Source: Flectonema sp. DT1601
Lineage: Eukaryota
Length of the DNA stretch: 64,000 nt
Reading direction: 5' to 3'
NCBI GenBank assembly: GCA_964019425.1
Contig: OZ025793.1
Location: forward strand, 620,001-684,000
Shown here piece by piece: positions 13,326 through 62,359 of this stretch. The position numbers were made by a program, and so were the translations under genes. The notes beneath the pieces were generated by a model. It worked only from the letters and a program-made list of their open reading frames with translations, was not told where the DNA came from and searched no databases. Every line of letters starts with the position of its first letter. Within the stretch, counting starts at the first letter, position 1.

Positions 13326-14124
13326 CCCCGTTCTTGTTACTGAAACCCGTTTTTCCCTTTCCTCCTTTGCCACGGGTAGACCGCAACGTTTGATTAACTT
13401 CCACAACTACTTGCAGGAAATTGTTACTATATTGTAATATTTAACTGCTGTATATGAAACACAAAAATCACTGATGCGCGGTGTCGGCATCAGCGAGGTT
13501 TAGAATAAAGAACTAGTCTTTTTGAAAAGACAATTTGGTGTTTATTTTTTTGTTTTATTAGTCATTTCCTCTATTTGTTTGTCACAGGTAGACGTTCTGA
13601 ATAGCTTTGTAGCAATTAAACAAGGATGAAACCTTTGTGAAAGCAGCTCTTGAGATAGGGCATGGTACTGGAAAAAAAAAAAAAAAAAAAAAAACCTAAC
13701 GAACGCAAGGCAAGCAGAAATCAAAAAAAAATAAATAAATAAATAAATAAGAAAAACAGGTGCTTTCAGAAAATATTTTTGTTTTTTCCTTCGTTCCCAA
13801 CACTCCCATCTAAATTCTCTTGCATACGTTTTTCTTTTATTTTGTTTTCTCTTTTATTTCTCCTAATTTTCTTTCGCTCTTTCGCTTCATATTCTTCTTC
13901 TTCTTCTTCTTATTCTTCTTCTTCTTTTTTTTTTTTTTTTTGCGCAATATAAAAAAAAAGGGATTATGCGTGTATAATAATTCCTGTCAAATGATCATTA
14001 AACTACCAGAAACAAAACTAAATATTATGGATGAATGGAGTGAAGGTGGCTAAAAGTTCAATAAAACTGTGTCATTGATTCTAAAAAAGCAGTAATTTCT
14101 TTACCTTCCTTTCTCTGTCACCTA

Positions 14125-15633
14125 ATGGATAAACGCAAACTTCTCACATTGCTGTTGTGTTGGACTGCTTTGGGTGTTCTTTGGATGGTCCAGAAAGGTT
14201 TTGAGGTTGACTCCAACAACAACAAGTCTACTCCTCTTTATAAGTACAAACGTGATTTGAATGGACAGCTGACAAGGCAAAACATAAGTCCTAGAACATT
14301 GCGAAATGGACAGTCAGCTGTTACGTGTGTAAACACGACCGTACCTGAATTCGACGACCTCTTAAAACATAAAAACACATCACTACCGGAAGTATTACGA
14401 AGAGTAACAAAACGACACCCTAAGGCGATCCACCGTTGGGGACCATCAACAACAGGACCTGTAATAGTTATGACATATAGTGCTTGTCATGGATCTCTAA
14501 GTCAACACTTTGGTCATTTATCAGCACTCACTATTGCTAAAGGTTTACAGCCGGATGTGGTTGTGTTACCGCATGCTAGAACTCGTAAGACATTCGAATC
14601 TCGTAACTTACTAGGTGATCGAGATGTTAATAAAACCAATACCTGGACTGAAGTCCCTCTCACAGCTGTTTACGAAATAGAGTCTTTTAAAAATTATTTA
14701 TCAACCCTAAGCATTGAATCTATGACGTTTCCGTCTTCTCCTGGACCAGTTGTGTTACCCGAAAGCTACAAGGCTTTTGAAACCCATTGGCACACGCAAG
14801 TTGCAAAGAAGTTTGGTCTTCCAAGTGACACACCAGTTGTTGGACTCCGTTACAAGCGTCGACGACCTCTGTTTATGTGGTTGCAAATACTTAATAGGCA
14901 AATTGCGAAATATCACAGAGAGAAGTTAATTATCGTAGACTTGGGTTGTACTGATATATTAATCGGTGCAAATCCTAATTATACTGCAATTGATACTGAT
15001 ATAAATACACTAAGAGAGGTTCATCAGTCACTACACATTGCAAATTATCTACAAGAAACTGCACACCGTGTGATTGATCAATTACCCACTAACTACACCA
15101 GCATACATCTAAGAATTGAGAGAGATATGATTGCCGACAGTGCTGTTGGTCGTTGGTGGAAGGCTCATTTGAGGGCAAAGGCTGCTTTCTTAGATCCCAT
15201 TAGGGAAGTTCCTGCCTTTGTTGCATCTGGCATATTTGAATACATGTCAGAAAAAGAACAAAGATCACTTCTAGCACCTTACATTGCAACACATAAACTT
15301 TATCGTGCATGTGGAGTGTCTCACATTCCCAATGATATTAGACCGTGGGTTGATTTCTTTATACTTGCTGGTGGTCGTCATTTCCAAGGGCATGAATTTT
15401 CTGTTTTAACATGGATTGTCATCCAGCAGAGGCTATTATATGGTCGCGGTCTTGATCAGCATTCTTTGGTCAAGAAAAAAGGACCTCCACGAAATCCACG
15501 ATGCTGCGAAAATGATCGATGCCTAACATACCAATGCGCTCTAACTGATGATGGTAACTTAATTGACTTTCGGGTTGGGAATGCAACGGTTGAAGACATT
15601 CTGGCCCCGATAACTTTTGACGGTGCTTACTAA
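14125..15633 (+). CDS. Type II membrane O-fucosyltransferase-like glycosyltransferase (O-FucT family), 502 aa
   Basis: N-terminal signal anchor; YTSIHLRIERDM matches the O-FucT HLRxExD motif; also FVASG and VDFFILAGGRHFQGHEFS (D..I...A..F.G...S motif). Confidence 0.75.
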   Translation: MDKRKLLTLLLCWTALGVLWMVQKGFEVDSNNNKSTPLYKYKRDLNGQLTRQNISPRTLRNGQSAVTCVNTTVPEFDDLLKHKNTSLPEVLRRVTKRHPKAIHRWGPSTTGPVIVMTYSACHGSLSQHFGHLSALTIAKGLQPDVVVLPHARTRKTFESRNLLGDRDVNKTNTWTEVPLTAVYEIESFKNYLSTLSIESMTFPSSPGPVVLPESYKAFETHWHTQVAKKFGLPSDTPVVGLRYKRRRPLFMWLQILNRQIAKYHREKLIIVDLGCTDILIGANPNYTAIDTDINTLREVHQSLHIANYLQETAHRVIDQLPTNYTSIHLRIERDMIADSAVGRWWKAHLRAKAAFLDPIREVPAFVASGIFEYMSEKEQRSLLAPYIATHKLYRACGVSHIPNDIRPWVDFFILAGGRHFQGHEFSVLTWIVIQQRLLYGRGLDQHSLVKKKGPPRNPRCCENDRCLTYQCALTDDGNLIDFRVGNATVEDILAPITFDGAY

Positions 15634-38035: not shown

Positions 38036-38982
38036 GCAAAGCGGGACTCTAATAAAATAACTAGCAGTTTTTGAAGATGATGCGACTTTCAGGTGAGAAT
38101 TCGCTAGAAAATAGAGTTCCCTTTGTTGGACAATTCCTTTTTCAACGAGTATCTTCATGCAATCAAATCAAGAAAAAAAAGAAGAAAAAAAAAGAATGTT
38201 TTATATAAAATGATGTGTTTTAATTATGATTTCCTCTCCAGTATTATATTACTAGCGGATTGCAGAAGGCCCGCTTGGCTCATTTTGCTTCCTCTTTCGT
38301 TAATCCCTTTATAAAATTATATACCCTGAAAAGAACAGGGGAGGAATATTATCCTGCAAGGTTTTATTTCTCAAACTCACTTCCTCACTTCCTCACCCCC
38401 TCTTACTGATGTATTGCTCTGTTAGGGTGACCGACGATCACCATGCAACCCTTTTAGTTAAATGGAAAAAGGGGAGGCCTGTCAAGCTTAATTTGTTCCC
38501 TTGCAAGGCCACTCACTCACTCGATCTTACTGACTGTTGGGGTGATCGACGATCACTTGTTTGCCTGTCCCACTATTGTGTTGGTGACGTAGTGCTTCAA
38601 AGTGACGCACCTTTTTAATTTTCTTTTCAATCACCGTGCACCCAACTGCACGATGGTCCTCACTCTACACCACTTTACCCATTACCAACACTCAGAGGAC
38701 GGACAGTATTTACTGAAAGAACAGATCCCCTCTTATTCCTCTCCCTTTCAATATTATGGCAATTTTTTGTCAACGTCTTCTTCTGTGATGCTAAAGTAGC
38801 TTTATATGGTTTGTAATTTTATGTTTTTTCAACTCTAATTTTTCTGGACAGAATTACACAATTTGTAGGTTTGAAAGTCGTTTCTCTCCACTAAGAAGCC
38901 TAGAGTTGTGCTTAGCTAAAAACTGGCTGCATTGTTTTTTAATGTGAGATTTTATATCTTATATTGTTATTGTTTTATTCAG

Positions 38983-41900
38983 ATGGGACATCACAAGATG
39001 GATCCCAAACTAGCCGCGCTGTTTGCGATGGTTGTGTCGATGTCGAGCAGTGGAGCTGTTTGGGGAATGACTCAGATTGTTGACGGCGCTGTTGTTGCCG
39101 CAGTACTAGCTGGAGTAGGTTTTCTTTGGGGAGGCATAACAATTCTATTTTCATATTGGATGGATAAGTCAGCAGTAGAGACAAGAGTAACAACTATCGA
39201 TATTGAACAAGGCCCAACTGTAGCTAGGGCAGACTACAAAGAAGGTTTCCTCAAGCAAGGACTCATTGACATGAATGAAGAACTAGCAGCCAGTACCAGT
39301 GATATAATTAAGGGTCAAAGAAGTACTACCGTATCAACAGAAGAGACATCAAGCTTGCTGCAACAGGTAAGTAAACAAAATTCAATCATTCCTCCAGATG
39401 GTGTTGTTACTGTTGTCTTTACCGACATAGAAGAATCTTCAACAATCTGGAGAAGAAGACCAGAGGCAATGAAAATTGCAATGCGCATCCACAATAAAAT
39501 AATGCGAGACTCCTACGCAGCATTTGATGGATATGAAGTGAAAACTATCGGAGATGCCTTTATGATTGCATTCACATCAGCTAGTTCTGCAGTGAATTGT
39601 TGTCTAAAAGCTCAATTAGACTTACTAAAGGCTGATTGGCCTGAAGGTATTCTCACGGACACTCTCTGCTCACCTGAAAACAACGAAAACGGGGTATTAA
39701 TTCATAGAGGGCTGAATATCAGAATGGGAATCCACACTGGACCAGCTACGAGAGAAATCGATCCAATAACAGAGAGATCTGACTACTTTGGACACACAGT
39801 TAACATGGCTGCTAGAATTGAAGCAGCATCTGCAGGAGGTGCTATTGCCTGCAGTAACGAAGTTCTTCGTGCCCTTGATGCATCGCATGTTGATTGCGAT
39901 ATCACTCCAGCTGGTAAGAAGAAACTCAAAGGAGTTGGTATGATAGAGCTTTCGATATTAAAGCCAAAGTCTCTGCCTAGAAAATGTGGACTTGGCGTAT
40001 CCACGAAAAAGTTAAATGCCACCCCCTCCCCCACACCAATGACACTTCAGGCCCTGTCCCCTGGGGAAGGTGGAAGTGCTAACGAAGCTGATAGAAGAAG
40101 AACTAAAAGATTTCTTCATAAGTTGTATGGAGAGAATCTGATGAGCGACAACAAGATACGTTCTATTGCTACCAGACTTCTCGACTCAGGGGAATTACAA
40201 ATGGTGACAGCGACTGTTGTTCATGTTCGTATTATAAACACGGAATCTGAACCCCTTCGACAGCAAATATCCTTCATGGAAATGTTAGCAGAGCGTACCT
40301 TTGGAATTGTAATGACCTCAGCATGTCCTAATGTCGTAATTGTATGGATGTGTGAACAACATGCTATGCAAGCAGCGTCATTTGCAGGTCTAATGGCAGG
40401 TGAACACGAATTATCTGAAAAGCGATGCACTCTAGGTATGGCTTCCGGAGGTGTTGCTTTTGGAGTTTCGACCACATCGACAGAGCAATACGTTACCTGT
40501 TTGGGAACACCTGTTGATTTTGCCTCTTCATTAGCTGAGGCAGCAGAAATATTTGAGGTGCAGTGTTTAACATTAGCTTCTATTGCTGTTGCTGCCCCAG
40601 CACTTCACAAGCTGATCAGACCTGTTGACTTTTGGCCTATTTATGGTGAATCTGAAACTCACTTAGAAATCTGTGAAATAAATGTTGCGGGACTTATGAA
40701 CGCAAGTAAATGGGAAGTATTCTATGGGGGAGGTGAAGAAACACGTTGGTTTGACATTGATTATATCCCAGCATTTCAAGCAGCTAAGGAAGGAGATATC
40801 ACTCTTATGCGAGAGATCTTAGCAAAGAATCCTGACGATCACATTGCAAAGCTCATCGTCGATGCTGAAGGCAAACAGATGTCTCGCAAAATGGTAAAGA
40901 TAGGAAAAGTTATGTCAGTAAAGGCAGTCGGACAAGAAGCTCTTGAAGAAGCCTGGGTAGCCGCATCCAAAGCTGCAGTACAAAAAGCCAGAAGCCACAA
41001 GGCGGAATTCATTTATATTAATGACCAGGCATATGAAGTTCACGCATTCATGAAGACTCATCCTGGAGGAAAGTCTGTTATTCAAAAGATGATTGGAAAG
41101 GATGCAACGGCAGAGTTCAACCTACACCACGACCACAACAGCAAGGCTCGCATTATAATGAAATCTTTACGAGTAAAGACTGAAGACAAAATGCACAGAG
41201 AACTAACCGTTGTCATGAACACAACAAGTATGTATTTGTTATTAAATTTTAAAAGACGTTGATGGAGAAATGCAAATAAAAAAATAAAACAAAAAAACAG
41301 AAGCACCAGACGTCGTCCTCGAAAGTTGGGAGAACTGCAAGGCCTTGGGTCTCGAAAGTTTTGGTATATTGCTGTACAGAAATTTATTTGAGACAAATCC
41401 TTCTCTTCTCGATCTCTTTCCATTTTCTGGAGTAAAATATTTATATGAAAGTAAACAACTCAAAGCTCACGCAATACAAGTAATGGCTGCGATTGATAAA
41501 AGCTTGAAAGGAATGGAAGAGGCTGCTGAAGTCGTACAAGTATTACACTCTTTAGGAGCATCTCATGCGAGGTGGGGAGTAAAAGAGAATATGTTTGACA
41601 CGTTTCACTTCGCGTTTGATAAAACTCTCAGAATGGCACTCCAAGAAAAATATACTGCTTCTGTAAGGGCAGCTTGGCTTGAAACAGCGCAACTTATAAC
41701 AGATGCGGCAAAGGTTGGTATTAGCCATCATGACATATCTAGTAATCTTCCTGTTGAGTTTAAATTTATTCGTCGTGAAACTCGTAATCACAATGTTTCT
41801 CTGATTGTAATTAGAAGTAATGAAGACTTGAGTACTATATTCGTTCCACCCGGATCTCACATCAGTCTGAAGGTTGGAAATGAACTCGCTAAACAATACA

Positions 41901-42448
41901 GCATTTCAAGAATTATTGGAAACGAATTACATCTCCTAGTAAAGCTATACCCAGAGAAGAAGAGTAGTATTGCATTGAAGAGTCTTGAGCACGGAGATTG
42001 TGTTGTTGTTAGAGGACCGTTTTTATCAGAATATCAAAACCACCATGATAATAAATCATTAGGATTTATTGGTGGTGGTACTGGTGTAGTTCCATTGATA
42101 TCGTTAGCAGCTGATGCGTTGATTGACCCAACAGTTCATGTGACGATTATGTCAGCAAACAGTACTCCTGCTGAGATATTCTTTAATGAGGAGATTGAAC
42201 ATTTAAAATCATTACCTGGAACTTGTACAATCATTCACTTCTTCACAAGGTCAGAAGTTATTGAAGAAACTCCGAAATTTGCTGATGAATGCATCGTCGG
42301 AAGTGATCGCCTCAGACCTGATATTATTGATAAGCATTTCCCTGAGTCACTAACACATTTCGTAGTTTGTGGTCCGGCTACTTTCAACAAATCTGTTTCT
42401 GAAACACTTCGATGTGCTCTTAAACAGTTCACTGTTCTTGGAGACTAA
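38983..42448 (+). CDS. Membrane adenylate cyclase fused to pseudo-cyclase, cytochrome b5, globin and FAD/NAD(P)H oxidoreductase; exons 38983-41227 and 41301-42448 (1130 aa)
   Basis: Two N-terminal hydrophobic helices. Cyclase: VFTDIEES, EVKTIGDAFM, RMGIHTG, DYFGHTVNMAARIE. Cytochrome b5: HPGG..GKDATAEF..H. A 73-nt intron (41228-41300, gtatgt..cag) fuses in frame to the globin (VLESW..LYRNLF..LFPF..KAH..LGASHARWGV) and the reductase (KQYS, VRGP, GGGTGVVP, VCGP). Confidence 0.85.
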
Positions 42449-56251: not shown

Positions 56252-59200
56252 ATGGGGTGCGCAGATTCGAAACCGGCACGTCCTCCTCGTCAGCCAGTGA
56301 CAAAGAGGAAACCGCCGCCAACTGTGAAGCCTCCAACAAAGGCAGCACCTCCAAAAGCAGCACCGGTAAAGAGTGAGACTCCAAGAAAACAAATTGAAGT
56401 GTCGGATGAGAACAGCCCGCCACCGCAACCGGCAAAGGTAGTTCCTGAACCGTACAGAGAGACTCCAATAAAAGAAGTAGAAGTTGAACCTTTCGTAGAA
56501 GAAGAGGAAGAAGAAGAACACGATGATATGACAGGAAGCACATCTTCTGAAGACAGTGAAGGTATTCGTACGATGGGTACCGCTGATGATGACGAAGACT
56601 CATTCTCTGAAGAACTTGCCCCTCCTGCTAATGAAGATTTGATCCACGCAGTCGAACATGGAAAGGCTGACGCAGTTGAAGAACTTCTCTTAAAGGGTAT
56701 TTCCCCAAATGGTATGAATCACGGAATGACTCCTCTTCATAGAGCAGCATTTAGAGTTGAGAAAGCAACTTATCCAATTATACGACTCTTAGTTAAATAT
56801 GATGCTAACGTTAATGGAAAAGATTCATCAGGAGGAAGACCACTACACTCAGCTGCAAGACAAAAGAATCCAGACGCTGTGAAAGCATTGTTAACAGGTC
56901 CTACTATTGCTGATCCATTAGCAAAGAATCGAAATGGTGAAACACCAATTCACACTGCTGCTTCTACTGATAATATAGATACTTTAAGTCGTCTAATTGA
57001 TGCTTGTCATAATACAAAGGATGCAGTCACTTCAACAACATCTTCTGGAAATACTCCTCTACATCTCGCAGCACACCGCGGACGACTCAACTCCGTGTCT
57101 GTGTTAATTGAGCTTCATCGTCAACATCAAGTGACACTCGATCCATTAAATAACGGAGGCTATACTCCAATTCAGGAAGCAGCTCTCGAGGGTCACACGG
57201 CTATCGTTAAGACTTTGAAAGAAGCTGGGGCAACATACGACGTTGTAACCCGTGAAGCTTGCGCCAGAAACAATAGTTCATCGTACCAAATTATTCCAAA
57301 AACATCAAATAATATAAAGAATGGTAAGAAAAAGGCAAGTAAAGCCAACAGTGGTAGTGGCAAGCGATTCAGTGCCGCTGCCAAGAAAAACAGTGAAGTC
57401 GGAATAAAGAAGAAGACTTCTGGAATTACTAAAGCGAACAGCGGAAGTGGAAAACAAAGTGGAACTGGTTTGAAAAAGAAAGCGAAAAAGACAACGAGTG
57501 GCAGGACACCACCACCTCCCAAACTCCAGGAAGTTAGACAGCAATCGAACCAGAATAGTGTTCGGGCTGTTGCTGCATCTCCTGTTATTCCGACTACTCC
57601 TCAACTTTCTAAAACAAACTACAGCAGCCACTCACTAAAGCAGTGGCAGAAGGGACGTACCCTTGGAAAAGGAGCTTTTGGATCAGTCTGCGAGGCTCTT
57701 CTTCGGTATGAAATACATCACAACATTTGTAATAATATTTAATAAGTAAGTTCTAAGGACTAAAATAATAATAAAACAGAGATGGATCCCTTCTGGCTGT
57801 AAAACTCATTCAATTCGATGTCGAAGATAAAAAGGAAACCGAACTCGTAACTCAAGAGTTTGAATTAATTAAAAACTTAAATCATATAAACATCCTTCAG
57901 GTATGTATTTCCCTTATCCAATATCTATAAAGCCTTGCTTTCCTTCCTCCCAAATATGATGATCTACATAAGCAGTCTCCCTCTTCCGAATGGTTTTGAC
58001 GAATACCTGCTTTATCGAACCTAATTACTAAGCCCTGATTGTGTCTTTTATTCTCGTTTTCTCTCTGATTCTATCCGATGAAGATAAAAAAGCACCCTCT
58101 CCGGTCTCAAGGAAACCATGCGAGACACTTGTACAGCTTTTAAAACCCCGTTACCCGTCTGAGGATTTGTTTTGAATTCCCGTCTGTTGTTATCGTTCTC
58201 AACGACAACCTGTATTACGATATGATGATCTACATAAGCAGTCTCCCTCTTCCGAATGGTTTTGACGAATACCTGCTTTATCGAACCTAATTACTAAGCC
58301 CTGATTGTGTCTTTTATTCTCGTTTTCTCTCTGATTCTATCCGATGAAGATAAAAAAGCACCCTCTCCGGTCTCAAGGAAACCATGCGAGACACTTGTAC
58401 AGCTTTTAAAACCCCGTTACCCGTCTGAGGATTTGTTTTGAATTCCCGTCTGTTGTTATCGTTCTCAACGACAACCTGTATTACGATATGATGATCTACA
58501 TAAGCAGTCTCCCTCTTCCGAATGGTTTTGACGAATACCTGCTTTATCGAACCTAATAACTAAGCCCTGATTGACCTTTGAAATCTTTTGTTTTGCCCTT
58601 TTTCATTCACTCCTTTTAACCACTTCCTAGTGTCCTTGTTATCCGATGAAGATAAAAAAGCACCCTCTCCGGTCTCAAGGAAATCATGCGAGACACTTGT
58701 ACAGCTTTTAAAACCCCGTTACCCGTCTGAGGATGAGTTGCTTTCCTGCCTGGTGTTTTTTTCATTTAGTGAATTTAAACTAACTAAACAACAACACCAA
58801 CAGTATTATGGAATTAATATTGATCACAAAAATAGTCAGCTTCAGATATTCATGGAAATGGCTCCAAAGGGTTCTGTTGCATCTCTCGTGAAAAGTATCG
58901 GAGATGCGCTCTCGGTATGTTAGCTTGCTTATTAAACATTCACTCTTAATATTAAAGAAAAAATAAATATGAATTCACAACGCAGGTAAATGTAATTCGA
59001 AACTTCACAATTCAAATTCTTCAAGGCTGCCATTACCTCCACGAGAGAGGTATTATTCACAGAGATATTAAGGGTGATAATTTACTCATAGGTGAGGGTA
59101 ACGTAATAAAGCTCGCCGACTTCGGAAGTAGCAGACAGTTCGACAACTTAGTCACTGCAGGTAAATGCAATACTCTAATCGGGACACCACTGTGGATGGC

Positions 59201-59519
59201 ACCAGAAGTCATAAATCTGGATGGCTCTCAGGGATACAACACGAAAGCTGATATTTGGTCTGTCGGTATCACTCAAATAGAAATGTTAAATTGTGTTCCT
59301 TGGAAGAACGCTGATAAAGAAACCCCTTGGGGGATGTTATTTCAAATTGGTTCTTCAAACAGCGCTCCGAATGGAATTCCTTCTGACTGTCATCCAAAGC
59401 TTCACGCATTCATGATGAGGTGTTTTATTAGAAAACCAGATCTTCGACCTGATGCTGGTGAGCTTCTTTCTGATCCGTTTCTAACATGCCCTGAGAAAGA
59501 CTTAGAATGGTGTTGTTAG
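56252..59519 (+). CDS. Ankyrin-repeat STE/MAP3K-type kinase with MGC acylation signal; exons 56252-57705, 57780-57900, 58804-58914, 58986-59519
   Basis: Ankyrin repeats (GMTPLHRAA, GGRPLHSAA, GETPIHTAA, GNTPLHLAA, GYTPIQEAA). Splicing rebuilds LGKGAFGSV - LAVK - HINILQ|YYG - HRDIKGDN - DFG - GTPLWMAPE in frame. Confidence 0.9.
57956..58038 (+). ncRNA. Candidate C/D-box snoRNA A (copies 57956-58038, 58222-58304, 58488-58570)
   Basis: Box C ATGATGA, D'-like CCGA, C'-like TTGACGA, box D CTGA; 83 nt; terminal stem acga/ttgt in copy 2. Target not identified. Confidence 0.7.
58073..58166 (+). ncRNA. Candidate C/D-box snoRNA B guiding SSU rRNA methylation (copies 58073-58166, 58339-58432, 58641-58734)
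   Basis: Terminal stem atcc/ggat; box C variant ATGAAGA; box D CTGA preceded by ccccgttacccgt, the antisense of conserved 18S ACGGGTAACGGGG. ccctctccgg is antisense to nearby 18S CCGGAGAGGG. Confidence 0.8.
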
Positions 59520-62359
59520 GTGTTAATCTTATTGGGATTCGAAACGTTTTTCGGTACCCTGACCGACAATACAGGACGAATAGCTGTGTCCTTTCTTTCT
59601 ATTTGTTATGTTGATTGACACAGTCGGCTACTATCTTTGCGATTCTTTTTAAGTGCTTAGAAAAACAAGATGCGGACCGGTCGGTACAAAAATTTAAAAA
59701 AAAAAAAAAGATACATTTTTGTTGTAATTTAAATTTAATTCAATTTGATTTCCCTTTTTTTTTTTTTTTTTCAATTCCGTTATTTTTGTTCTTGTCTTAT
59801 GATCTTCTCAGACTCCCTACTAAACAGAAAGGTAACACAATAGTAGCAACCGCACCTACCAACAATATATAAATGACCTTTCTCGCTTATTATTTTGTGT
59901 TTTTCATTTTTAGTTGGCATAGAATCTATCTTTTTTTTTTTTTTTTTTTTTTTGTTAGTTTAGTTTTAGTGGAAAGATTTGTGACATTTTAAAATACCGT
60001 TGAGATTGGTAATTCTTAGATGAACGTATGCATGCCTTCCTCTTATGGTTATTTGAGATGTCAAAGTCTTTGCCTTCCGAGTGTTGCCGTTCTGCAACGT
60101 ATGTTTTCCCCTTTTTTTTTTGCTAGACGAACATGAAACAAAGATCTATATGCCAGTTTTTTACTTTCTTAAAAAAGAAAATTTAAAGTTCATTGTAGAC
60201 AGTCAAGAATATCATTCTTGTTTAAGCGGATTTCATTAACCCTGTAAGGCAATTACAACCTGAGAAGAAGTTAATTTGTCTTTACACTTTTATGTTTTTA
60301 ACCTAACCTAAATGGTCGGATTCATCAGTTAAGAAAGAGTGAATACCTAATATTTTTGTGTGCTATATTTGCAAGATATTACGAACTAACAAAGGATGCT
60401 GTTTTGTCATTCAGTACCCTGGTGATAGTTTCAAACGTCATGTCTTTACTGAGTGCCACGCAAGGTTCAGAAAGTTACTTATCTATGAGCATGTTGTGTG
60501 AGCCCAGAAAGTTTGACAATAGTTTAGTTTTTTTTTTCTCTTTTTTTTTCTGCGAATATAGCATGTTCAGAGAAGAGGAATTTTGCGTTTTTTTTTTTTT
60601 TTTTTTTTTTTTTTTATTGCTGCATTGTCGAAACAGTACTCTTGATAAGATAAAAACGGAAGATACAAAAACATTCTCGAACCGAGAGAAAATGGGTTTT
60701 ACCTTATTGATAAATTGCTTTTTTCGACACAAAAGAAAAAAAAAAAAAAAAAAAGAAAAGAAAATTGTTTTTTTCTCTTTGTTTCTGTTTCTATTAGGAT
60801 GTGAGGAAATAAATACGATCAAGTAAGGATTAGAAATTCCGAGGTAGTATGTTCTCGCTTTTCATTTCAAAAATAAATTTTAAAAAAAATTAAAAAAAGG
60901 GGCTAATCGATTTCGATTATTTTTACCGATTCACTTTAACATATCAGCTACTGAGATGAGAAGGCCAATGTCGGGGTTGGTTGAAATTGGTAGCACCTGC
61001 GTTTTAAAAAAAAAAAATAAAAAAAATGAACTGAACTGAAAAATAAAATAAAATAAAAATAACAAAGAAAATCGCGCTGCTGGGAAGAAGAAAAAAAAAA
61101 AAAAAAAAAAAAAAAAGAGACGTCTCTTTTACCGTGAATAATCTTGGCAGGTCGCCGACCCCATCATTTTAGTAGTACGTTATGTATCTAAATTGCTCTC
61201 GCATCTGCGTGCGTTTTTTTTTCTTTCTTTCTTTTATTCGTCTAACTGCTTTTTTTTTTACATGGTTTGGAGCTCCAGCCAAATCTTATCTTTGTAATAC
61301 GTTTGTTTAAAAAAACTAATTCTACTTTTTTGCAGAAGAGAGAGAAACGCGTCTACTTTAAAAAGAGAGACTGTTCCTGTAAGCGTCTTCGTTGATACGG
61401 AAACTTGATGAGTATCTACATACTTATCTGCTGCGAAAGTTTCCACTATCGAAAAAGATAATTCCACGGGTTGCCTTTCACCATAGACTCTCTGGTGTTG
61501 GTAATCGTTTTTTTTTTTCTTCTGAATTTTTCTTAACTTCTCTTTTTTTTTTCCCCCGCTCAAAAGACTATCACTACCTTTGTTTATGAGCTTGTTACAA
61601 GAAATCAGAGTACGATAAACAAAGATGTACTCTTTTTTTTTTTTTTTTTTTTTTCATTCCCTTTCATTTTCTTTTTTCCCCCCTTTCAACTCTTGCTTTG
61701 GTATTTTTTTTAATTATTTGCATGTAAAAATTTTCCGTTACGTAGTCGACGAGTAGTAACAAGGTTTAAAATAGCAAACTAGTCAATAGTGCTTAATAAT
61801 AGTGTGAAGGCACCCTCTGTTGGTTAGGAAACCCTTTGACGTGGCTTAACGTAACACTTAATAAAAAAACAATCAATCAATTTAGAAAAAAACTCAGCAA
61901 GTAGTAGATAGCAGCGGGAAACACAGATTCTGAAATCTGGGAAGGTAGTTTAGGTTTTAGTTGTAAGTAAATTGCCCGTATGAAAAAAAAGAGAAGTCTT
62001 CAAAAAAAAAAAGAAAACAAAAGAGACGAAATAGAACCCTGCTGGAAATGTTTCCTTTTCCTCCCCTACCCCTCCCCCTTACCCCCTCCCACATCGGTTT
62101 GTGTAATTAATTTGATATTTTGCGTCGATTTGGAAAATACAAGCGAAGCAGTGAAGGAATAAAAGGTTAAGTTTGGGCATCACGAATGCCTGTCAGTGAT
62201 ACCCGTAGATATCATAGTTAAACGTTCTTCTAAGTTACGAATTACTCACAACAGACATATAAAATGGTTTTGGATAAGTGGCCACTCTCTTACAGGCAGT
62301 AGATAGTAGTAGCTGTAAACCTATATCGTCTAACAGGTTATCAAAAAATATTTAAAAAT

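Follow-up and report, generated by a model that had tools for sequence, protein, structure and literature searches.

The window analysed here, a 64,000-nucleotide (nt) stretch of contig OZ025793.1 (positions 620,001 to 684,000) of Flectonema sp. DT1601, harbours on its forward strand at 38983..42448 a gene which is predicted to encode, in one polypeptide, an adenylate cyclase together with a cytochrome b5 (b5), a globin and an FAD- and NAD(P)H-binding reductase. Two open reading frames (ORFs) are present at this locus, 38983-41262 and 41483-42448, between which lies a GTATGT...ACAG segment at 41228-41300, and when this segment is excised as an intron a single frame of 1130 amino acids (aa) is obtained whose sole stop is at its end. 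The domain order of the predicted protein is two membrane helices, adenylate cyclase, pseudo-cyclase, cytochrome b5, globin, FAD domain and NAD(P)H domain. Pfam matches were obtained to Guanylate_cyc (6e-31) and Cyt-b5 (1e-12) in exon 1 and to Globin (8e-17), FAD_binding_6 (7e-8) and NAD_binding_1 (2e-8) in exon 2, all five exceeding the curated cut-offs (108 bits vs a cut-off of 21.9 for Guanylate_cyc), and they place the domains in the order and at the coordinates that a first-pass annotation of this DNA, made from the letters alone, had given. The features of the locus are as follows.

38955..38982, + strand: T-rich tract and AG just upstream of the ATG, a likely spliced-leader (trans-splice) acceptor, its putative role read from T content
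38983..41227, + strand: coding part of exon 1 (aa 1-748 plus one base)
39010..39147, + strand: two predicted hydrophobic helices (Kyte-Doolittle; aa 10-28 weak, aa 37-55 strong) with no ectodomain, a likely membrane anchor
39394..39972, + strand: class III adenylate cyclase domain of the trypanosome type (Pfam, fold match, residues)
39982..40074, + strand: flexible linker, aa 334-364 (pLDDT < 50)
40078..40863, + strand: pseudo-cyclase domain with flanking helices (strand/helix order of the model, Foldseek, residues)
40972..41175, + strand: cytochrome b5 domain (Pfam, alignment to b5 structures)
41228..41300, + strand: 73-nt GT-AG cis intron, A-rich towards its 3' end; 41303 and 41309 could also serve as in-frame acceptors
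41301..42448, + strand: coding part of exon 2 through the stop
41303..41725, + strand: 3/3 globin, neuroglobin/plant class 1-like (Pfam, sequence and fold matches)
41762..42022, + strand: FAD-binding barrel of the b5-reductase type (Pfam, motifs)
42065..42445, + strand: NAD(P)H-binding domain (Pfam, motifs)

Intron and splice signals

The GC content of the segment at 41228-41300 is 0.21, while the adjoining 150-nt exon stretches have 0.40 and 0.39. The region allows 39 in-frame GT/GC-AG joins, and when these were scored against a profile of the seven relatives only, the best three all used the donor at 41228, with acceptors at 41309 (966.6 bits), 41303 (965.5 bits) and 41300 (964.6 bits), the fourth-ranked join, 41232-41325, following by a small margin at 964.1 bits. 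Judged by these scores the predicted donor is secure and the acceptor may lie 3 or 9 nt further downstream, giving a protein of 1127-1130 aa; of the exact intron of the first-pass annotation the donor thus stood, and its acceptor at 41300 shares its place with 41303 and 41309, all within 2 bits.

That the two ORFs belong to one polypeptide, as the first-pass annotation had claimed, is borne out by the open 1130-aa frame, by the ranking of the donor and by the seven relatives described below, all of which (six being transcriptome-derived) span the b5-globin junction in one chain. The acceptor is A-rich as in the other cis introns of the window: upstream of the acceptors of the six cis introns examined the A content is 52-84%, whereas the T content upstream of two start-codon acceptors is 64-68%, the tract at 38955..38982 having 68% T in the 25 nt that precede its final three bases. 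As a control, three introns of this kind, with a GTATG donor and an A-rich end, were removed from the ankyrin-kinase gene at 56252-59520, which gave one open frame of 739 aa with a complete kinase domain. Because the relatives cross the junction in one chain and the acceptor resembles those of cis introns, the gene at 38983-42448 is taken to encode one polypeptide. The competing account, two genes in which a cyclase-b5 protein of 759 aa and a globin-reductase protein are produced via trans-splicing at 41300, is very improbable; diplonemids do trans-splice, and the protein collection lists the two ORFs apart (P0002, P0067), albeit from plain ORF calling, but no relative is divided at the junction, the acceptor is of the A-rich kind and the second ORF, read from its first ATG, is without globin helices A-E, and the two-gene account was rejected on these grounds.

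Cis introns in the window (for example 41228-41300, 57706-57779 and 58915-58985) end A-rich and have no polypyrimidine tract, and the start-codon acceptors are T-rich. Acceptor composition, A-rich or T-rich, may possibly serve this genome as a code by which cis and trans splicing are told apart (6 + 2 sites). GT-AG introns are reported for the Diplonema papillatum genome (PMC10161547).

Residues and folds of the domains

The two membrane helices of the first-pass annotation appear as two Kyte-Doolittle peaks, of 1.53 and 2.22, and two peaks are also present in all five complete relatives; in the window copy the second helix is strong and the first is weak. A HAMP-like stretch was seen by eye after the membrane helices of relatives; it gave no Pfam match at E up to 10 in six proteins and is not visible in the window copy.

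Two part models were made, one of aa 130-660 of the window copy (pLDDT 83.7, pTM 0.57, 26 sequences) and one of the b5-globin-reductase module, the latter on a D. japonicum protein rather than the window copy (pLDDT 89.7, pTM 0.59). When aligned to GRESAG of Trypanosoma brucei, its nearest match (E 8e-29), the first cyclase domain has all six catalytic residues that the first-pass annotation had listed, namely the metal-binding D148 and D191, the ATP-specifying K187 and D267, and the transition-state residues N274 and R278, and it matches the structure 1fx4 with Z 27.0 and a root mean square deviation (rmsd) of 2.2 over 209 residues. Residues 366-627 fold in the model in the strand-helix order of a cyclase, with pLDDT mostly 85-95, and Foldseek aligns approximately 475 columns of the aa 130-660 model to the two-domain human sAC (E 1e-14). 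This second domain lacks all six catalytic residues, in every one of the 7-8 sequences that extend over the respective position. The profile-profile match between cyclase and pseudo-cyclase is weak (probability 0.9%, E 0.065), and therefore the fold call is drawn from the model, in which domain 2 is a dead second cyclase fold. A cyclase followed by such a dead pseudo-cyclase and lacking the redox tail was found in 19 further proteins (P0004, P0005, P0007-P0013, P0015-P0021, P0023, P0024 and P0062), those with names being diplonemid, and by this sequence comparison the pseudo-cyclase is an ordinary tail of many diplonemid cyclases.

Alignment to b5 structures places the heme ligands of the b5 domain at H693 (in HPGG) and H718, the two His ligands that had been called at first pass, with a further His at H716 (HxH); all three are invariant in the eight sequences. 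In the globin of the window copy, with the register checked against neuroglobin, the residues are Y774 (B10), F788 (CD1), H805 (E7), Val at E11 and H837 (F8). The Tyr, Phe and two His named at first pass are therefore present, but Tyr B10 is not a feature of the family: B10 is Phe in all seven relatives and Tyr solely in the window copy, whereas His F8 is kept in 8/8 and His E7 in 7/8 sequences. The closest solved globins are neuroglobin and plant class 1 hemoglobins (E 1e-11 to 1e-10), no full-length flavohemoglobin being found among the best 60 of 108 globin matches, and the modelled globin aligns to neuroglobin 2vry over 142 residues with Z 21.0 and rmsd 1.6. From these matches the globin is of the 3/3 type and resembles neuroglobin and plant class 1 hemoglobins rather than flavohemoglobins. 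Likeness to these globins suggests a putative hexacoordinate, bis-His heme; His E7 is found in pentacoordinate globins as well.

Other globin fusions were noted among the database proteins. Among P0064-P0069 and P0113 are proteins in which neuroglobin-like globins are repeated up to 14 times, one of them also having ankyrins (Prorocentrum), and a fusion of SAM, globin and kinase. P0155, a Logan contig of 312 aa, is a fragment with a b5 end, a neuroglobin-like 3/3 globin and an FAD domain, and it resembles a nitrate reductase hinge carrying a 3/3 instead of a 2/2 globin.

The best matches of the reductase are the b5 reductases of yeast and Physarum, and the D. japonicum model aligns to yeast Cbr1 over 229 residues (Z 24.7, rmsd 2.5). 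The GGGTG and CGP motifs, Tyr/Ser and Lys-x-Tyr are kept in the window copy, in which the FAD motif is, by its sequence, slightly worn. The Arg of RxY is present in 6/8 family sequences (6/7 relatives), being Lys in the window copy and lost in the Sulcionema specki protein. Where NADH-specific b5 reductases have Asp, the family has Thr, followed by Arg or Lys in 7/8 members (Thr-Arg in the window copy), from which, in the light of work on b5 reductases and FNR, we infer a predicted preference for NADPH. Foldseek matches the folded b5-globin-reductase module to flavohemoglobins first (E 2e-20). Cyanobacterial syNOS (PDB 9q05), a large one-chain heme and reductase enzyme, is also among the fold matches of this module (Z 18.8, rmsd 13.7).

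A diplonemid family with a probable single fusion

Homologue searches, which were word-seeded and length-banded, returned 1 of 4230 candidates, 61 of 7998, the best 150 of 6239 and 5 of 6405; from the best 150 of 6239, 26 proteins were Pfam-scanned, and P0001, P0071 and P0102 alone of the 150 entered the cyclase-domain set. Seven relatives were identified in four diplonemid species: P0001, P0213 and P0214 in D. ambulator, P0003 and P0063 in D. japonicum, P0071 in D. papillatum (KAJ9472313.1, whose database name is just 'Adenylate cyclase') and P0102 in S. specki. The cyclase is present in 6/7 of them, as P0063 begins within the pseudo-cyclase and P0213 within the cyclase, and identity across the family is 26-77%. 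No member outside diplonemids was found among the matches listed by these word-seeded, length-banded searches (best 150 of 6239), and the organism from which the window comes is accordingly taken to be a diplonemid. In the five copies from D. ambulator and D. japonicum mean identity is 0.77 for the globin, 0.74 for b5, 0.71 for the cyclase, 0.62 for the FAD domain, 0.55 for the NAD domain and 0.52 for the pseudo-cyclase. The catalytic Asn/Arg pair of the cyclase is kept in 6/7 sequences.

In a tree of 62 cyclase domains, from which P0002 (the window's own ORF) was left out, the seven family members that have this domain form one group (SH-aLRT 88) within 26 pseudo-cyclase proteins (87), apart from a Strigomonas receptor cyclase and from bacterial cyclases. 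In a tree of 36 reductase domains seven members are grouped at 99/96 and S. specki, on a long branch, falls outside; the window copy and D. papillatum also have long branches, and the family is placed beside Namystynia and Porcisia proteins of the b5-b5-reductase kind (84/86, not starred). A globin tree of 72 of 121 matches likewise groups seven members at 92 amid mostly unnamed neuroglobin-like proteins, with S. specki outside. As S. specki falls outside the other seven in these two trees, a single origin is read from the cyclase tree, according to which the redox tail was joined once, in one old fusion, to the common diplonemid scaffold of cyclase and pseudo-cyclase.

The conserved diplonemid family is apparently undescribed. 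In agreement with the first-pass annotation, which knew of no description of this architecture, no account of it was found in the literature searched, subscription papers (e.g. microbial eukaryote globin surveys and the HemAC-Lm paper) lying outside the search, so that an earlier mention is possible. The words 'cyclase' and 'globin' occur 0 times in the main text of the D. papillatum genome paper as available (PMC10161547), and 'globin' 0 times in seven of its supplement files, in which supplement adenylate cyclase families are listed among diplonemid gains. Both words are likewise absent from the available text of PMC8611851, with no globin or adenylate cyclase match in five supplement files, and from the available part of PMC7052976.

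The window also contains, all on the + strand, a GrpE gene (1611-2285), an alpha-kinase (3100-4446), a receptor-like kinase whose kinase domain is C-terminal and which matches dCache_1 weakly (6293-9661) and an O-fucosyltransferase-like ORF (14065-15630). These are followed at 16004-38035 by five tandem near-identical genes of approximately 1100-1160 aa each, spaced at approximately 4.6 kb, whose products have long Pro/Thr/Glu repeats of copy-dependent number, Cys-rich domains, a C-terminal membrane helix and an N-terminal domain with what we take to be a chitinase-like DxDxN motif, in which the catalytic Glu is replaced; the last copy gave no Pfam match at E 0.01. Downstream, the ankyrin-repeat protein kinase gene at 56252-59520 (+ strand) has three introns of 74, approximately 900 and 71 nt, the long one containing tandem repeats of approximately 250 nt.

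Proposed function and comparison with known systems

Heme gas sensors must remain ferrous, and their reductants are usually unknown. We propose, with a probability of about 0.5, that the gene at 38983-42448 encodes a predicted membrane-anchored cyclase whose cyclic AMP (cAMP) output would vary with the ligation or oxidation state of the globin heme, its own reductase keeping that heme ferrous with NADPH. The starting point is a predicted single chain in which the catalytic and heme-ligand residues are all in place. A class III active site requires two cyclase domains, between which it is formed; as the six residues are all missing from domain 2, a working site would have to be made by a pair of domain 1 copies. 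Being located between cyclase and hemes, the pseudo-cyclase would be a natural relay, either keeping domain 1 apart or letting it pair. The reductase, NADPH-preferring by its motifs, would hand single electrons from FAD to the globin, either via b5 or directly, the latter being as possible since the globin adjoins the FAD domain as in flavohemoglobins. If the heme is bis-His, as likeness to neuroglobin and plant class 1 globins suggests, O2 or NO may displace His E7; O2 and NO together would oxidise the heme iron, which the redox chain would reset. Several reports provide a setting for this proposal: trypanosomatid cyclases act as dimers and Leishmania HemAC-Lm makes cAMP on oxygen binding (PMC4534343), b5/b5-reductase reduces cytoglobin (PMC7475203), and D. 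papillatum tolerates hypoxia, under which it changes shape (PMC8611851).

The proposal is supported by the retention of the fusion in eight sequences, by the single group of their cyclase domains, by the conserved heme ligands and by a globin and b5 which, in the five close copies, are as conserved as the cyclase and more so than the pseudo-cyclase or the reductase. A number of observations weigh against it. In the window copy KQYS replaces RxY(S/T) and the Gly of GxxS is missing. Structure prediction, a check named in the first-pass annotation, gave part models that both fold with confidence, but in the aa 130-660 model, at pTM 0.57 from 26 sequences, the two cyclase folds are not in the usual paired arrangement (rmsd approximately 20 Å to sAC). 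Because 19 proteins outside the family have cyclase and pseudo-cyclase, the latter would not have been made for heme coupling. The D. papillatum copy has Asp/Thr for the catalytic Asn/Arg and retains its redox tail, and the S. specki copy keeps cyclase and b5 and has lost the distal His and the RxY motif; judging from these sequences the cyclase and redox halves can decay separately.

Other readings give the redox tail a different part. An unlikely one makes the oxidation state of the b5 heme the signal, balancing NADPH supply via FAD against the drain of electrons via the globin during O2/NO turnover, with b5 touching the pseudo-cyclase. b5 does adjoin that domain, its ligands and extra His persist even in the S. 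specki copy, which has lost RxY and the distal His, and flavohemoglobins reduce their globin without b5, so b5 may serve another job; against this, the globin is the best conserved domain of the five close copies and the worn S. specki reductase would deprive b5 of its inner electron source. About equally unlikely in our estimation are two uncoupled jobs, in which a self-sufficient NO dioxygenase (or a nitrite- or O2-handling enzyme) is carried on a membrane cyclase for location only. A globin followed by an FNR-family reductase is the flavohemoglobin plan, in keeping with flavohemoglobins heading the Foldseek matches, the D. papillatum tail is retained beside a likely dead cyclase, and a raphidophyte nitrate reductase with b5-globin-FAD is reported as NO-metabolising (PMC3820574). 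The distal pocket, however, is Phe/His and not the Tyr/Gln of flavohemoglobins, the flavohemoprotein model NF009805 (a prokaryote model) gives 53.3 bits vs a cut-off of 432, no free b5-globin-reductase form of the family occurs among the best 150 of 6239 matches, and multiple paralogs per species suit a signalling family.

Decay of the window copy, whose reductase would have lost both FAD binding and electron transfer and whose hemes would depend on outside partners for their reduction or act as a scaffold, would explain the Arg to Lys change in RxY(S/T), the lost Gly of GxxS and the long reductase branches of the window copy, D. papillatum and S. specki; with both Pfam reductase models above their cut-offs, the GGGTG, CGP, Tyr/Ser and Lys-x-Tyr motifs kept and the Arg present in 6/7 relatives, we consider it improbable. 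A more far-reaching reading, put forward tentatively and of rather low probability, makes the protein a self-powered enzyme-receptor: NADPH would drive O2/NO turnover at the neuroglobin-like heme, and the cyclase would be freed from its dead decoy domain according to the state of the hemes. If true, cAMP would report a reaction rate rather than ligand binding. Heme control of cAMP signalling would then have arisen in Euglenozoa a second time, independently, and the trio of b5, b5-reductase and hexacoordinate globin would here be naturally fused to a signalling output.

A sensor with a candidate reductant in the same chain would allow sensing, resetting and output to be measured in one preparation, and it offers a concrete candidate for O2/NO sensing in diplonemids, abundant marine protists tolerant of low oxygen. 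The fusion is also evidence for a partnership of neuroglobin-like globins with b5 and b5 reductase, and for the ability of such globins to feed a second-messenger enzyme, and it points to a likely regulatory role of the pseudo-cyclase tail found in many diplonemid cyclases.

Among known systems, the trypanosomatid OACs (HemAC-Lm, LmjF.28.0090) are likewise euglenozoan fusions of a class III cyclase and a globin, and make cAMP on O2 (PMC4534343, PMC7719234). OACs are described as soluble, with an N-terminal globin and a C-terminal cyclase, and are termed a trypanosomatid innovation in the available part of PMC7719234, in which 'diplonem' occurs 0 times. In the diplonemid protein the globin is C-terminal, behind pseudo-cyclase and b5 and ahead of the reductase, and a membrane anchor is predicted. 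Membership of the OACs was rejected on the reversed domain order and the predicted membrane helices, a separation made by description.

Flavohemoglobins (Hmp, YHB1) have the same succession of a 3/3 globin and FAD and NAD(P)H domains and are the top fold matches, but identity is 13-18%, the globin is nearer neuroglobin and the reductase nearer b5 reductase, E7 is His, and b5 and cyclase are added. The flavohemoglobin distal pocket is Tyr B10/Gln E7. Given His E7 in 7/8, Phe B10 in 7/8 and the NF009805 score, flavohemoglobin membership was rejected; the globin-reductase plan named in the first-pass annotation is retained, and the globin itself is not flavohemoglobin-like. The parallel drawn there with raphidophyte nitrate reductases fared similarly: NR2-2/2HbN shares the order b5 - globin - FAD - NAD(P)H, but its globin is of the truncated 2/2 type and a molybdenum domain precedes the array (PMC6128913), whereas the diplonemid protein has a 3/3 globin, cyclase domains and no Pfam molybdopterin match.

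With neuroglobin, cytoglobin and plant class 1 hemoglobins the family shares Phe B10, His E7, Val E11, His F8 and, as a candidate reductant, b5/b5-reductase; those are separate soluble proteins without a cyclase, whereas here all three parts and an output domain are in one chain. Diplonemid receptor-like cyclases (KAJ9472403.1, KAJ9450490.1) and sAC also combine a cyclase with a second cyclase fold, the former with membrane helices as well, but the receptor-like cyclases end after the second fold, and in sAC and the mammalian cyclases (C1/C2) the catalytic residues are split across domains, whereas diplonemid domain 1 holds all six and domain 2 none. Euglenozoan b5-b5-reductase fusions (Namystynia P0097, Porcisia P0182) share the FTR and CGPxxFN motifs and the C-terminal end and, unlike the diplonemid family, have no globin or cyclase. 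Such a fusion is the likely source of the family's b5-reductase frame, and the likely history is that a euglenozoan b5-reductase fusion acquired a 3/3 globin and that the whole unit was then added to a diplonemid cyclase.

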